Program-made: the position numbers and the translations under genes
The notes under the pieces: model-generated
Told to the model about the DNA's origin: nothing
Database searches by the model: none
Seen by the model: only the letters and a program-made list of their open reading frames with translations
Source of the DNA: Patescibacteria group bacterium
GTDB lineage: Bacteria; Patescibacteriota; UBA1384; UBA12157; JAENIV01
DNA length: 52,593 nucleotides
Assembly (NCBI GenBank): GCA_035288145.1
Contig: DATEAX010000028.1
Location: forward strand, 1 to 52,593
Direction: 5' to 3'
Shown here: positions 4,557-35,070 of the stretch, piece after piece
How positions within the stretch are numbered: position 1 is the first letter of the stretch
Layout of the letters: the number at the start of each line of letters is the position of its first letter

Positions 4557-5039
4557 CTATTTTTCCACATACGTACGTTTTTTAATAGATATTTCCCTAA
4601 TATTTTCGCTGATGTGTTTAAATCTTATATAAATAGTATTTTTTGGTAATATTTTTTTTATTTTTTCTGCCCACTCGATGACCATGATTGCATCTTTCCG
4701 ACCCCAGTAATCCTCAATGCCGGCAGATTTAATCTCTTCGATTTTTTCCAGGCGATAGGCATCTACATGAATAAGTTTCCTAACCATATTGACTACACCT
4801 CGGAGGTGTAGTTTTGGTCGTAAAATGTTATATTCTCTTAGTACTACGAAAGTTGGACTGGTGATTGGCTCTTGGATGCCTAACCCTTTAGCCAGCCCTT
4901 TGACAAAAGCCGTTTTGCCGCTACCTAATTCGCCAATGAGACCGATGACTTCGCCGCCTCGCAAGTTTTTGGCAAAAATTTGTCCAAATTTTTCCGTCTC
5001 GGCGGCGCTAGGTGAAATCATCGCCAAAACTTTCTTCAA
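4557..5039 (-). CDS. tsaE: tRNA t6A biosynthesis ATPase TsaE
   Basis: Walker A GELGSGKT, TSPTF, HVDAYRL. Confidence 0.9.
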   Translation of the reverse strand: MKKVLAMISPSAAETEKFGQIFAKNLRGGEVIGLIGELGSGKTAFVKGLAKGLGIQEPITSPTFVVLREYNILRPKLHLRGVVNMVRKLIHVDAYRLEKIEEIKSAGIEDYWGRKDAIMVIEWAEKIKKILPKNTIYIRFKHISENIREISIKKRTYVEK

Positions 5040-15698: not shown

Positions 15699-18302
15699 TT
15701 ATCTTCCATGACATTTTTTATACTTCTTTCCGCTACCGCAAGGGCAGGGGTCGTTGCGGCCGACCTTGGGGACTGATGACGATGGCGTCGACGATGGGTC
15801 GGTCTGTGTCGCCGGTGTAGGAGAAACATCCAAGGGCGATTTCGTTCGCACCGTCACTTCGACGCCGCTATTCGGTACTGATTGCGCCGGCGTCTGCTCA
15901 ATCGCCGGCACCGAACCTTTTTCACCCCACCCCAGGGGTGGGGTCTGGTTATCCTCAAATGTCCCGGCGGCCATTGATTCGTCCGCGCCCTTCATTTGGA
16001 TTTGTCTTAAAGGTTGGGCCGCTATTTGGACCGGCGCCGGCCTAATCTCCGCTTTGAGCAGAATCTCCACCACTTGGGCATTGATATTGCCAATCAACCT
16101 TTGATATAGGCGGTACGCCTCGGCTTTATATTCCACCAGCGGATCGCGCTGACCGTAACCGCGAAGACCGATTCCCTCGCGCAAAACCTCCATCGCGTTT
16201 AAATGCTCGACCCACAAAGTATCAATTGACCTTAAGTAAACCATTCTTTCAATTTGGTTCATCGAATCCTGACCTATCTCTTGATACTTCAAAAGATATT
16301 GTCCTTTAGCCCCTTCTTCCATCAAATTCAAAATATCTTCATGAACTGATTTCCCCTCCAGAATCTTACGCCGCAGTAAATATATTGCCTGGCGGTGTTT
16401 GTTTTGGACATCATCGTATTCAACAAGATGTTTTCGAATATCAAAATTATGACCCTCAACTTTTTTTTGAGCCGACTCAATCGAACGAGAAATTAACGAA
16501 TGCTCGATGGGCATGTCATCGGGCAAATTGAGGCGGTTCATCAGATTTTTCATTCTTTCGCCGCCAAAAATCCGCATTAAATCATCTTCCATAGAAACAT
16601 AAAACACCGACGAGCCAGGATCGCCTTGACGGCCCGAACGCCCACGAAGCTGATTGTCAATCCGCCGGGCCTCATGTCTTTCCGTACCCAAGACATGAAG
16701 GCCCCCGGCATGGACGACTTTTTGATATTCCTTCTCATTAAACGGCGCGCCGCCTAAGATGATATCCACCCCCCGGCCAGCCATATTGGTCGCCACCGTT
16801 ACCGCTCCTGGTCGGCCAGCTTGGGCGATGATTTTTGCCTCACGTTCGTGGTGTTTGGCATTGAGAACCTCATGTTTGACACCCATTCTTTTCAAAATGC
16901 GCGAAAGCTTTTCGCTTTTTTCAATCGAAATCGTGCCGACCAAAATTGGTTGACCTTTCTCCGACCGTTTTTTGATATCTAATGCGACGGCCGTCAATTT
17001 AGATTCCTCGCTCTTATAAATCTGGTCTTGAAGATTCTCACGAATCATTTTTTTATTTGTCGGAATAACCACCACTTCAAGTTTATAAATTTTGAAAAAT
17101 TCCTCCGCTTCGGTCTCCGCCGTTCCCGTCATCCCGGCCAGTTTCCTATAAAGACGAAATAAATTCTGAAAAGAAATCGTCGCCAAAGTATCGGATTCCC
17201 GCTGAACTTCCACCCCCTCTTTGGCTTCAATTGCCTGATGGAGACCTTCGCTATAGCGCCGGCCCGGCATCAGCCGCCCCGTAAACTCGTCAACAATGAT
17301 GACTTCGCCATTTTTGACAACATAATCCCGGTCTTTTTTGTAAAGAGCATGAGCAATTAAGGCCTCTTCCAAGTGGTGGACAAGCTGGATATACCGGCTG
17401 TCATAAACATTTTCCAAACCCAATATTTTCTCAACTTTTTTCATCCCCTCGTCAGACAAAGTCACGGCGCGCATCTTTTCATCAACCTGGTAATCTTCAG
17501 CGGCTTTGAGTCGGGGAACGAGCTCCGCAAACTGACGATATAAAGCGGCAGACTCTTCGGCGGGCGCGGAAATAATCAGCGGCGTGCGCGCCTCGTCAAT
17601 CAAAATTGAATCAACCTCATCAACGATGGCAAAGTTTAAATCCCGTTGAACCATCTGCTCACGGCTCTGAACCATATTGTCTCGAAGATAGTCAAAACCA
17701 AATTCATTATTTGTGCCGTAAGTGATATCCGCCGCATAAGCGTCTCTGCGGGAAATTGGCAAGAGATTGGCATATTCGATCGTCGTTGGTTCAACGTCCT
17801 GTTTTTGAGGCGTAAATAGAAACGAGGCTTCGTGATTGATGGCGGCAACTTTCAGCTCCAACTTATCAAAAATTGGCCCCATCCAGGCGCAGTCCCGACG
17901 GGCCAGATAATCATTGACCGTGATTAGATGCGCCCCTTTGCCTTCTAAGGCATTCAAGTATAAAGCTAAAGTCGCAACTAAAGTTTTTCCTTCGCCGGTC
18001 TTCATTTCGGCGATTTTTCCTTGATGAAGGATGATGCCACCCATTAACTGAACATCAAAATGCCTTTGACCGATGGTTCGTTTGGCCGCCTCGCGCACCA
18101 CGGCAAACGCTTCGGGAAGGATGTCGTCCAAAGATTCATTTTGCGCCAGACGCTTTTTGAATTCACCTGTCTTCCCCTGAAGTTCAGCATCTGTCAAATG
18201 CTCAAAATTCTTTTCCACACCATTGATTTTTTCAACCATCGGTCTAAGGCGGGCCACCTCGGCCTCATTAGACCCGAACATTTTACTTAAAAAAGCGAGC
18301 AT
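15699..18302 (-). CDS. secA: preprotein translocase ATPase SecA
   Basis: [12 protein letters not shown]-terminus, [42 protein letters not shown]-terminal zinc motif [14 protein letters not shown]. Confidence 0.95.
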
Positions 18303-18347
18303 TTTCTGCCTTTCAGAGAACATTATAGCAAAACTTGAAAGATTTGG

Positions 18348-32121: not shown

Positions 32122-32484
32122 TTATTTGTGCTCTGCAAGTAATCTCTGTAATTTTCTTTTAAGAGTAGAAATCCTGACTTCAGCTCGATCATTGAGGCTT
32201 ATTTGCATCATTGCATCTTCATTTGCCCCTCTGTACTTAGTTTCATTTGCACGTCTAATTATTTGGTGGCCTTCTTCGATTCCTTTTTTCGTATCAGCAA
32301 TTTCAACCATTATCCTCATCAATTCCACCTCATCCTGACCTATAGATTCCGGATTTACCGCCATTGATTCTAAAGTATTCTTTTTTTCTATTTCTCCGGT
32401 TTGTTTTTGAGACTCTCCAAACTCTTTCGCTGCTTGTTTTTCTTCTTCAGACCTAAATTCATCTCCGTTGTTCATTTCATTCAT
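32122..32484 (-). CDS. acidic hypothetical protein (120 aa)
   Basis: ATG 32484 with GAGGAGG 6 nt upstream; no family motif recognised. Confidence 0.55.
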   Translation of the reverse strand: MNEMNNGDEFRSEEEKQAAKEFGESQKQTGEIEKKNTLESMAVNPESIGQDEVELMRIMVEIADTKKGIEEGHQIIRRANETKYRGANEDAMMQISLNDRAEVRISTLKRKLQRLLAEHK

Positions 32485-32603
32485 AATTTTCCTCCTCAAA
32501 TGTTTTTAACCTTAGAAAGCTTTTGCCTTCCTACCTTCATTTAACTCTCTCTCTGCTTGTCAAGAGTTTGTCAATAATTTATCTTGTCTTACCAGTGTTA
32601 CCC

Positions 32604-33387
32604 AATTACCCCGCTCCTGGAGCGGGGTTAAAAATGGTTAAATATGTTATGATAAGAGTATGAAAAGAGCAGTTGGGTTAGTTACCGGAGAAGTCTATCA
32701 TATTTTTAATAGAAGTATCGTTGATTATCGGATATTTAATAATGATGAAGAATATTTCAGAATGATGAATTTACTGAAATACTATCAAATCAGAAGTGAA
32801 ATTAAATTCTCTGAATTTATTCAATTAAAACAGATTGAGGGATATGGTTTTGACAGATTTTTTGAAATCATTTCCAAAGATAAAGAAAAAGTTGTACAGA
32901 TTATAGCTTACTGTCTTATGCCTACCCACTTTCACTTAATCCTTAAACAATTAGCTGAAAAAGGAATTTCATCTTATATGGCAAACACACTAAATAGTTA
33001 TACACATTACTTTAACATGAAACACAGAAGAAAAGGTCCTTTATGGGAGAGTAAATTCAAAAACGTCTTGGTAAATAATGACGAACAATTGATCCATCTG
33101 ACAAGATATATTCATCTAAATCCTGCCACTGCTTTATTAACTGAAAAACCAGAACAATGGTCATTCTCTTCATATAATAAATATTTATCAACATCGTGCT
33201 CAACTTCTACGCTTTGCCAATATAGTGATATTTTAGATATTAAAACATCAGAGTACAAAAAATTCGTAAATGATAGAGTTTCATATCAAAGAGAATTAGC
33301 CAAAATCAAAAATTTATTACTGGATTAAACCTTATTCTGCCCCCTTACCTATTACCTACCACGCTCCTGGAGCGGGGTAAATGGTTC
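32604..33387 (+). mobile_element. REPtron/IS200-like unit 2: Y1 transposase gene flanked by direct copies of a palindromic REP-like sequence
   Basis: ATTACC..CGCTCCTGGAGCGGGGT..AAATGGTT at 32604-32638 and 33351-33387; palindromes centred on T32618 and T33368. Confidence 0.7.
32660..33328 (+). CDS. REP-associated tyrosine (HUH-Y1) transposase, RayT/IS200-like
   Basis: YHIFNRS, HUH motif PTHFHLIL, RYIHLNPATALL, WSFSSY. Confidence 0.85.
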   Translation: MKRAVGLVTGEVYHIFNRSIVDYRIFNNDEEYFRMMNLLKYYQIRSEIKFSEFIQLKQIEGYGFDRFFEIISKDKEKVVQIIAYCLMPTHFHLILKQLAEKGISSYMANTLNSYTHYFNMKHRRKGPLWESKFKNVLVNNDEQLIHLTRYIHLNPATALLTEKPEQWSFSSYNKYLSTSCSTSTLCQYSDILDIKTSEYKKFVNDRVSYQRELAKIKNLLLD

Positions 33388-35070
33388 CAAAATCGCTTTG
33401 ATGCGGCGGACGCCGGCGGATGAAGATTCCTCTTTAATGATTTTGAAATGGCCGAGTACGCCGGTATTTTCAACATGGGGTCCGCCGCAGACCTCGCGCG
33501 AGAAATCGTCAATCGAATAGACCTTTACTTTTTCGCCGTATTTTGAGGTAAATTGAGCTTCGGCGCCTTTTGCTTTAGCTTCTTCAACGGTCATTTCGTC
33601 CATCTTCACCGGAAGATTTGCCGCGATTTTTTGATTAACGATGACTTCGATTTTTTTAATTTGCTCGTCGGTTAATTTTTCAGGATAGGAAAAATCAAAA
33701 CGGAGCCGCTCGGCGTTGATATTCGAACCGCGCTGATGAACATCGGCTCCCAAAACAATCTGTAAGGCCTTAAGCAGAAGATGGGTCGCGGTATGGTATT
33801 TCGTCTCCATCTCGCCTTCGCCTGCCAGCCCCCCCTTAAACATGCTTATTCCGGCGCGAGAAATTTCCCGATGCTTTTTTTGCTCAACATCAATATCTTG
33901 ATCCGTAATCTTAACTTGATTCATCGCCGCATAATCTTGATACATTCTTATCGGGCATCCCTGGGATTGAAACAAATCAAAAGCGTCTTTGGCTGAATAT
34001 TCCCTTCGGTTTTTGATAATCTCTTCACATTTTGTTAAAACTACGCTAAAAGATTTTGCTTCGTTAAAAATTATTCCTTCAATTTTTTGTTGATTATCTT
34101 TTAATTCTGGATATTGACTTTTAAGGCTTTCGATGATTACGGAAATGATATTTTTAATCCAAGTGGGCTCGAATTCTTTCATCCCGCTGTAATCCACTAA
34201 ACGTCTGATTAATTTCCTCAAAACCGATTCTCTTTCATTTTTGCCTGGAACTATCCCCGCGCTGGTAATCATCACGCTTGAACGCAGATGATCGGCAATC
34301 ATTCTGATGGATTCACCGTCTTTATCTTTTTTAAACGGCGTTTCTTCTTCAATTGAATTGATTGTCGGTTGAAAGACATCCGTCTCGTAAATATCATCAA
34401 GTCCATTTAACACCGCCAGCGTTCTTTCCAAACCCATGCCCGTATCTACACCTTTCTTTTCAGATTTCTCGTACTTTCCGTTATTAAAAACATATTCATT
34501 AAAAACTATATTCCAGATTTCAATATCATCAAAGTAAAATTCAACCGTTGGGCCGCCGGGGGAGTTTTCCGCGCCAAGCGACCAAAAATTATCGTCGCCT
34601 TGACCTTCAATTTTTTCTAAACCTTCCAACTGCTCCAATATTTTTTTTGATTCATCATCTGTTGCGATATCAATTTTTGCTTTACTTTTTTCAAAATAAG
34701 TGACTGAAATTTTTTCTTTATCAATTCCCAACCACTTTTTACTTGTTAAAAACTCCCAAGCAAATTCAATCGCTTCTTTTTTGCCGTATCCCCCGAAGGA
34801 AAAATTGCCGAGCATTTCAAAAAAAGTGAGATGCGTCTCGTCGCCAACCTCTTCAATATCAGATGTCCGAAGGCATGGTTGGCAAGTGACAATATTTTTC
34901 GCGGGCGCTTTTTCGGGATTAAGATAAAACTCTTTGAACTGTTGCATCCCGGCAGTGGTAAACAAAACCGACGGGTCATTTTCCGGGATTAAACTTGAGG
35001 CCGGAAATTCGCGATGGCCGCGCTCGACAAAAAATTGAATAAATTTTTGTCGGAGTTCTTGAGAGGTCAT
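33352..35070 (-). CDS. alaS: alanyl-tRNA synthetase, compact form ending right after the editing domain
   Basis: FTTAGMQQFK, RTSDIEEVGDETHLTFFEMLGNFSFG, HTATHLL, CGGPHV, GVRRIKAIL; last 11 codons lie in the REP-like repeat. Confidence 0.9.
   Translation of the reverse strand: MTSQELRQKFIQFFVERGHREFPASSLIPENDPSVLFTTAGMQQFKEFYLNPEKAPAKNIVTCQPCLRTSDIEEVGDETHLTFFEMLGNFSFGGYGKKEAIEFAWEFLTSKKWLGIDKEKISVTYFEKSKAKIDIATDDESKKILEQLEGLEKIEGQGDDNFWSLGAENSPGGPTVEFYFDDIEIWNIVFNEYVFNNGKYEKSEKKGVDTGMGLERTLAVLNGLDDIYETDVFQPTINSIEEETPFKKDKDGESIRMIADHLRSSVMITSAGIVPGKNERESVLRKLIRRLVDYSGMKEFEPTWIKNIISVIIESLKSQYPELKDNQQKIEGIIFNEAKSFSVVLTKCEEIIKNRREYSAKDAFDLFQSQGCPIRMYQDYAAMNQVKITDQDIDVEQKKHREISRAGISMFKGGLAGEGEMETKYHTATHLLLKALQIVLGADVHQRGSNINAERLRFDFSYPEKLTDEQIKKIEVIVNQKIAANLPVKMDEMTVEEAKAKGAEAQFTSKYGEKVKVYSIDDFSREVCGGPHVENTGVLGHFKIIKEESSSAGVRRIKAILEPFTPLQERGR

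Follow-up and report, generated by a model that had tools for sequence, protein, structure and literature searches.

Work on repetitive extragenic palindromic (REP) sequences and the REP-associated tyrosine transposases (RAYTs) has been confined almost entirely to Proteobacteria and Cyanobacteria and to REPs of the GTAG type. The REPtron, a TnpA_REP/RAYT gene with its cognate REPs, was reportedly described by Nunvar in 2010. In such units, of which E. coli YafM/RayT (PDB 4ER8) is an example, the gene is flanked by its cognate REPs (Ton-Hoang 2012, PMC3333891; Quentin 2018, PMC6006769). REPs also occur inside genes, including ligase and tRNA-synthetase genes (Di Nocera 2013, PMC3733652). Our literature search found no account of RAYT/REP systems or of in-frame palindromic elements in bacteria of the candidate phyla radiation. 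Here we analysed a stretch of 52,593 nt from a Patescibacteria group bacterium (the window; contig DATEAX010000028.1 of assembly GCA_035288145.1), in which a gene for a 222-residue Y1 HUH protein is bracketed by two copies of one hairpin, which we call type 2. We conclude, with a probability of about 70%, that this window unit is REPtron-like and represents a two-footed, non-GTAG type of REP/RAYT system in Patescibacteria, a host group outside the surveys cited. Its components and logic are those of known REPtrons; what is new is the two-footed, non-GTAG hairpin.

The gene is intact, and its 222-residue protein is predicted, from its family and fold, to be a RAYT-type (TnpA_REP-like) HUH/tyrosine single-strand DNA nuclease-ligase. 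Y1_Tnp (PF01797) was the sole Pfam domain reported, at 29.3 bits against a gathering cut-off of 23, and REP_Tyr_transpos (NF047646; E 6e-16) the sole NCBIfam match; transpos_IS200 (NF033573) did not match. In sequence, the only PDB match was 4ER8, the E. coli TnpA_REP (RayT). A model of the protein built with AlphaFold2 on 49 homologues had a mean pLDDT (predicted local distance difference test) of 90.2, and its best fold match in Foldseek was again 4ER8 (E 5.6e-7, TM 0.68). The ISDra2, IS608 and IS200 transposases ranked behind, near 3e-4 and beyond; nearly all of the best 30 matches were TnpA_REP, ISDra2, IS608 or IS200 proteins, indicating a TnpA-type fold. H90, H92 and Y150 were invariant in 49 of 49 homologues. 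The tyrosine motif (RYIHLNP) is of the Y...NP type, the class-2 criterion of Quentin 2018, and not Y...Q. The model has a helical insertion at the N-terminus and a single long helix (residues 196-221) at the C-terminus; neither it nor the Pfam search revealed a helix-turn-helix (HTH) or DnaA_C-like C-terminal domain. We conclude that the protein is nearer in sequence and fold to TnpA_REP (4ER8) than to the TnpA of IS200/IS608. An earlier reading of the window, made from the sequence only (the sequence-only reading), had placed the gene in the RayT/IS200 superfamily of Y1 HUH enzymes, and the Pfam domain, the HUH and tyrosine motifs and the fold bear this out. Its description of the protein as IS200-like is not supported, in view of the class-2 Y...NP motif, the closeness to TnpA_REP and the finding of near-identical copies in no genome.

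Direct reading of the window confirmed the coordinates of the open reading frame (ORF), of its HUH and RYIHLNPA motifs and of the flanking palindromes (Table 1). Both end hairpins have T as the loop base on the plus strand, and they are followed by TTAAAAATGGTTA (to 32640) on the left and by TAAATGGTT (to 33386) on the right. The 16-mer core of the hairpin has four strand-matches in the window where 0.29 are expected, and none of 100 shuffles reached four. When folded as single-stranded DNA, both ends formed hairpins on both strands (-11.6 and -13.1 kcal/mol on the left, -9.4 and -7.6 kcal/mol on the right; z -2.5 to -4.6), and in the folded ends of the window unit the outer ACC and GGT feet also paired. 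Among type-2 copies the 5' spacers vary in length and sequence. In orthologues of the window unit, (T)GA-ACC stands right at the stop codon of the Y1 gene.

The genome to which the window belongs (G000; 664 kb in 62 contigs, 44.6% G+C, the window being contig C28) encodes four paralogues of the window protein, on contigs C42, C31, C54 and C14, found by tblastn at 53-65% identity; the five unit proteins are 53-66% identical. Each of the five genes is flanked at both ends by a private stem (Table 1), and the four paralogous units share their outer feet, (T)AACC ... GGTT(A). The proposal that the flanking palindromes are a cognate repeat is therefore upheld, as the same stem stands at both ends and every paralogue has its own. 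The family was found in 22 of 41 related genomes, with up to eight intact, diverged copies per genome, and in 40 of 301 genomes sampled across Patescibacteria (about 13%). In all, 3,412 protein clusters matched at E<1e-5; they are annotated as 'hypothetical' or 'transposase' and come from Berkelbacteria/Patescibacteria.

To describe the hairpins we fetched 60 units from 13 genomes. Clean pairs of left- and right-end hairpins with the same apical stem were present in 52 of the 60 units. The module measures about 45 nt and consists of a (T)AACC foot, a short spacer, a 7-10 bp stem with a 1-3-nt loop, an A-rich spacer and a GGTT(A) foot; the consensus feet are (C/T)TAACC (5') and GGTTA(A/G) (3'), at a median of 13 nt from the loop on either side. 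Pairing statistics were computed directly on the modules instead of through a covariance model. Seven apical positions paired in 93-100% of 104 modules, each with three to five pair types, as against 17-71% when the partner was slid. Cytosine prevails in the 5' arm and guanine in the 3' arm: at the four apical positions C-G pairs occurred in 54-64 of the 104 modules and G-C pairs in 0-6. In a maximum-likelihood tree of the 60 units, the stems track the protein clades. For the type-2 clade (the window unit and the units of the relatives G002 and G005) the stem is CCGCTCC throughout, for its sister clade CCACCCC, and other clades carry CATACC in one case and ACAC[CT]T in another. Within genomes, identity between unit proteins reached 67.6% at most, with a median of 50% (129 pairs, 12 genomes), and there were no near-identical copies; the units are old lineages that coexist, and not the product of recent bursts of transposition. 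All of this resembles REPtrons, which likewise have a Y1 HUH enzyme with Y...NP (4ER8 being the best match in both sequence and fold), a gene bracketed by its own palindromic repeat, several diverged and specific enzyme/repeat pairs per genome with low intragenomic identity, and largely vertical inheritance.

The criteria for solo hairpins, applied genome-wide, were a perfectly paired stem of 7 bp or more and feet of ACC and GGT, and the counts were compared with those in shuffled genomes. There were 58 such double-foot sites in the genome and 5-14 in the shuffles. Inspection left about 24 solos, of which five were of type 2, four or five of the C31 type, two of the C14 type and one of the C42 type (types other than type 2 are named after the contig of their resident unit). 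About 12 had stems without a matching unit in the assembly, which is 93% complete. Further type-2 copies had been anticipated in the sequence-only reading, which called for a genome-wide survey of the core; this survey gave five solos outside the window unit (C26:20583, C40:431, C46:10, C62:691 and C62:2078), with 0-1 mismatch in 19 nt relative to the unit stem. Modules of all types number about 34 in the 664 kb. At least nine solos lie in frame in housekeeping genes, namely those for Tig, LigA (twice), SecA, GatA, RecG, ValRS, TsaE and the AlaRS tail, and about 40% of the solos are in frame in essential genes. The gene for LigA (C62:687-2807) has a type-2 hairpin in its interior (PRSWSG) and another that makes up its last seven codons (TPLQGRG-stop). 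For the stem of the tsaE solo, no cognate unit was found in the assembly. LigA also contains an additional extra segment, PPTPRLRRAGKAQSS, which looks like a palindromic insert of a different family.

Four of these insertions, in LigA, GatA, TsaE and SecA, were compared with the same sites in relatives (coded G001 to G008, with L0xx for fetched loci; G001, G007 and G008 belong to one genus). In GatA 39 nt (13 codons) have been cleanly inserted into a conserved motif, and one of the feet (aaC GGT TTa, N-G-L of NGLPVG) is ancestral host sequence, so the element went in beside a pre-existing foot-like AACC/GGTT motif. The LigA site is filled in G000, G001, G002 and G007 and empty in five relatives, including G008. 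The LigA stems differ by genome, and in three of these four genomes a resident unit has the same stem (type 2 in G000, L034 in G001, L040 in G002). Between G000 and G001 the module flanks in LigA are identical (GACCTTTTACCCC...GGGGTGGAAATGGTTA), and the apical 11 nt alone differ, GCTCC-T-GGAGC in G000 and ATTT-CGT-AAAT in G001, each tip recurring as the stem of a unit in its own genome. At the TsaE site G000, G001 and G007 each have a module, with different stems, and eight relatives have none; the G001 hairpin matches unit L032 and that of G007 matches unit L055. SecA of G001 has a CATACC-type hairpin near the position of the G000 hairpin, in the same linker, and this matches unit L033. Overall, the tips of 9 of 11 intragenic hairpins equal that of a resident unit of the same genome. 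Only one unit is present in G008, where LigA and TsaE are free of hairpins, and there are eight each in G001 and G007, which carry both hairpins; unit number and intragenic hairpins may go together.

On the REPtron-like reading, the enzyme would bind its own hairpin on single-stranded DNA, for example at a replication fork, cut near the feet through Tyr150 and then rejoin the ends. The variable stem tip would be the specificity element read by each paralogue, and the invariant feet would be common sites of cutting or joining. Cutting and rejoining would copy or move hairpin modules into new or pre-existing foot-bearing sites, and in this way the resident enzymes would disseminate the hairpins or keep them matched to themselves. 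Tentatively, and with the odds somewhat against it, we also consider that resident Y1 enzymes overwrite the inner stem and loop of modules at fixed foot-bearing sites with their own tip, including at sites inside essential genes, where the reading frame would be unchanged. The lead for such tip rewriting comes from LigA of G000 and G001, and from TsaE and SecA; the LigA and TsaE comparisons are a partial test of it. If it does occur, it would add a new kind of site-directed DNA editing to the activities of HUH enzymes. With up to eight mutually specific enzyme/hairpin pairs in genomes of less than 1 Mb, the family offers a natural panel for the study of hairpin reading by Y1 enzymes. Moreover, in-frame hairpins in the ligase, SecA, GatA and tRNA synthetases shape protein sequences in reduced genomes, and hairpins confound annotation, as at the alaS tail.

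The unit may also control itself. The TGTTATGAT box upstream of the Y1 gene is probably a promoter that belongs to the unit and yields a leaderless mRNA, and its spacing of 6 nt from the ATG fits a leaderless transcript. A TGnTAnnnT box followed by the start codon was found in 37 of the 60 units, with a spacing of exactly 6 nt in 28 of them; a generic -35/-10 scan of the window did not list the TGTTATGAT box. The left hairpin overlies the -35 region of this predicted promoter, which makes autoregulation by the bound enzyme plausible. Probably, the bound enzyme limits its own expression via the left hairpin.

Several points weigh against a REPtron-like system. The protein, with 58.6 bits, misses the RAYT equivalog cut-off of NF047646 (80 bits), and with its 222 residues and long C-terminal helix it is longer than REPtron proteins. 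Canonical REPs carry a 5' GT[AG]G at the hairpin foot, whereas the feet here are (T)AACC...GGTT(A). Classical REPs are present in tens to hundreds of copies, whereas this family has a handful per type: type 2 totals seven copies (five of them solos), and the C54 type has no solo at all. The modules in LigA, TsaE and Tig replace ancestral codons, for a net change of +6, +8 and 0 codons, respectively, which a plain cut-and-paste model leaves unexplained, and the boundaries of the insertion are fixed for one solo only, that in GatA. Cutting, excision and insertion by the enzyme are activities predicted from sequence and model, and the promoter and its autoregulation are likewise read from the sequence. 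Lastly, as judged by its motifs, the protein resembles Quentin subclass 2.1 (Bertels group 1, TIRYT), with which it shares xH[FIV]H, WE, Y[IV]HLNP, SS after the tyrosine helix and a length of about 220-240 residues, and this subclass is reported to be without REP-like hairpins (Quentin 2018, PMC6006769). Subclass 2.1 corresponds to the TIRYTs, which are flanked by terminal inverted repeats (TIRs; PMC6006769), and these are plain repeats, GGGG[AT][CG]A[CG] (Di Nocera 2013, PMC3733652). A TIRtron thus has plain inverted repeats and a C-terminal HTH-like domain, whereas the window unit has a stem-loop at each end and its protein ends in a single helix.

The main rival in our ranking, although we consider it unlikely, is an autonomous insertion sequence (IS) of the IS200/IS605 type. 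In that case gene and hairpins together would leave the DNA as a single-strand circle and go back in 3' of a target tetranucleotide, and the solos would be by-products or decayed copies. The unit shares with IS608 and ISDra2 the catalytic fold and the subterminal hairpins at both ends of one small gene, and the loop base agrees at the two ends in the window unit (T/T) and in its orthologues in G002 (A/A) and G005 (T/T). There are several units per genome, and a type-2 unit at 77% identity stands at another locus. The uvrA/uvrC spacer, where six genomes have units from different clades, is a possible target hot spot, and next to the GatA solo there is a short host motif, AACC, that resembles the element's own foot, much as IS608 lies beside TTAC. 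In contrast, the tyrosine motif is Y...NP instead of Y...Q, transpos_IS200 is not matched, the fold is nearer to TnpA_REP, the 222-residue protein has extra N- and C-terminal parts, and there is no tnpB. Near-identical copies were present in none of the 12 genomes (129 pairs, maximum 67.6%), and synteny is kept across genera, the position of the window unit being stable over long periods. The ends are, in addition, palindromic on both strands and variable in orientation. The sequence-only reading had taken the direct orientation of the two flanking hairpins as the IS200/IS605 arrangement, as opposed to that of a REPtron. This distinction could not be sustained: of the 52 clean units, 29 have direct ends, 18 have inverted ends and five have some other arrangement, and the module is a near-perfect palindrome, feet included, that folds on both strands. 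Orientation is thus not a usable classifier here.

Less probable still is a fully domesticated enzyme with a host role at structured DNA, such as resolving or marking hairpins at the fork or regulating neighbouring genes, for which the hairpins would be fixed cis sites, now immobile, and the matches between solos and units would be the traces of old events. The intact ORFs and the catalytic residues, invariant over deep divergence, would fit such a role, as would the stable position of the window unit, the very low copy number of the hairpins and the overlap of the hairpin with the gene's predicted promoter region. What speaks against it is that within one genus G001 and G007 are filled at LigA and TsaE but G008 is empty, that the tip at one and the same site varies, in agreement with the resident units, and that the solo stems equal the unit stems (0-1 mismatch in 19 nt) despite the fast turnover of stems between clades. 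The idea of ordinary transcription terminators, or of chance palindromes unrelated to the gene, scarcely deserves consideration, for although the right hairpin does lie between convergent genes, the hairpins lack a T-run, a generic promoter/terminator scan listed no terminator-like site in 32450-33500, the gene has the same stem on its upstream side too, stems change together with protein clades, copies lie inside ORFs, counts are far above those in shuffles, and, where the sequence-only reading had looked to a lack of further type-2 copies and to relatives with the same flanks but no transposase as the mark of terminators, additional copies exist and the empty alaS sites of relatives have neither hairpin nor gene.

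Table 1. Features of the window unit, solo hairpins elsewhere in the window, and stems of the paralogous units (positions are those of the window).
Feature	Position	Strand	Remarks
Left-end 5' region, three TTACC foot motifs	32589..32608	+	motifs at 32589-32593, 32598-32602 and 32606-32610
Left hairpin, CCCCGCTCC-T-GGAGCGGGG	32609..32627	+	10 bp when 32608/32628 are included; single-stranded DNA fold -11.6 kcal/mol, z -3.7
Left A-rich spacer and 3' foot, TTAAAAAT-GGTTAA	32628..32641	+	side conserved in type-2 solos as T(T)AAAA(T)GGT[TCA]
Extended -10-like box, TGTTATGAT	32645..32653	+	6 nt before the ATG at 32660
RAYT-like Y1 HUH gene (predicted), 222 aa	32660..33328	+	ORF with THFHLIL and RYIHLNPA; HUH is H90-F-H92, catalytic Tyr150
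Right-end 5' region	33328..33358	+	AACC overlapping the stop codon (33328-33331), two TTACC motifs
Right hairpin, CCACGCTCC-T-GGAGCGGGG	33359..33377	+	one mismatch, at 33361
Right spacer and 3' foot, TAAAT-GGTT	33378..33386	+	outer unit boundary 33384-33386, from empty alaS sites and L083
Last 11 alaS codons, EPFTPLQERGR-stop, reading through the right hairpin	33352..33386	-	from comparison with relatives
Solo in tsaE (4557-5039, -), ACTACACCTC-G-GAGGTGTAGT	4792..4812		AACC/GGTC feet; in frame (KLHLRGVV, then NMVR from a GGTTAG foot)
Solo in secA (15699-18323, -), C-terminal linker, ACCCCACCCC-A-GGGGTGGGGT	15924..15944		in frame (TPPLGWG); C31-unit type
C42 unit stem, CCCCATACC / GGTATGGGG
C31 unit stem, CCCCACCCC / GGGGTGGGG
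C54 unit stem, ATCACCT-ACG-AGGTGAT
C14 unit stem, GATACACTT-ACG-AAGTGTATC

In-frame palindromes in essential genes have a counterpart in the Rickettsia palindromic elements (RPEs; cited in PMC3733652), short palindromic repeats that stand in frame in essential genes of a reduced genome and are tolerated as extra peptide loops. RPEs are longer and are not known to have a cognate enzyme, whereas in the family described here each hairpin type goes with a resident Y1 gene.

The window unit has an FtsA-like gene on one side and the 3' end of alaS on the other, and the arrangement is syntenic in G000, G002, G005 and L083, the last being a locus on a Logan contig that carries an 84% orthologue. In eight relatives alaS ends in ...RRIKAILE-TAA with neither hairpin nor Y1 gene, and in several of these the FtsA-like gene directly follows alaS. 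The 77%-identical type-2 unit adjoins cutA in another organism, indicating that units relocate over long times. Judged from these comparisons, the window unit is old and mostly stationary. The Y1 protein, at 73-79% identity, is more conserved than AlaRS (47-52%), which might suggest a recent horizontal arrival; this was rejected in view of the still higher identity, 85-91%, of the FtsA-like protein next to it. In L083 the alaS stop codon abuts the right foot (GGTTAAATT-TTA-CTCCAAAAT), which places the outer right boundary of the unit at 33384-33386. The window lacks 10 nt that L083 has at the alaS stop; this deletion removed the TAA, and alaS was thereby fused to the right hairpin and is read through it. 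Insertion exactly at the alaS stop codon was also considered and rejected, since L083 keeps the stop and the deletion in the window is therefore secondary. The intergenic DNA of the relatives is too diverged for the empty alaS sites to set the ends of the element, and the 84% orthologue fixes the right end only.

A short AlaRS ending in ...RRIKAILE was found in 11 of 11 relatives checked, the short form without the C-Ala domain being typical of the lineage. In G002 (L030/L002) alaS ends in a different palindrome, CCACGGGCT-GA-AGCCCGTGG, just past the ILE codons, and a Nudix-like ORF lies between alaS and the type-2 unit. At a second locus, the uvrA/uvrC spacer, a Y1 unit is present in six genomes of two families (G000, C54:10800-11560; L008, L033, L040, L042 and L051). 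Neither the protein clade nor the stem is constant across these units; the site is either a hot spot or one of replacement in place.

Besides the five family units, tblastn found two further Y1 genes in G000, that of unit 1 of the window, whose protein is 31-33% identical to the window protein, and a seventh on C25. The sequence-only reading had proposed two transposase and REP subfamilies in this genome; there are indeed several, the five family units being joined by unit 1 and by the seventh gene with a hairpin cluster of its own. It had also noted that the type-1 core, near unit 1, and the type-2 core differ by three nucleotides. As strings the two do differ in this way (CACGCT-GGAGCGG and CACGCT-CCT-GGAGCGG), although only for the mismatched right-end copy. 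The origin of type 2 from type 1 by a 3-nt insertion finds no support, as stems change wholesale between protein clades and the unit-1 protein is so distant. The empty alaS site of G007 (L023) holds a type-1-like element, TTATCCCTTATT-TCCGCTGGAGCGTA-AATTGGGGATAA, the repeat associated with unit 1 of the window. The seventh Y1 gene (C25:8683-9267) scores 96 bits, above the NCBIfam RAYT cut-off. It is followed by three tandem hairpins of another type (ACACGCT-AA-AGCGTGA) at C25:8500-8700, with copies on C18 and C54, and this cluster is more like classical REPs or bacterial interspersed mosaic elements (BIMEs).

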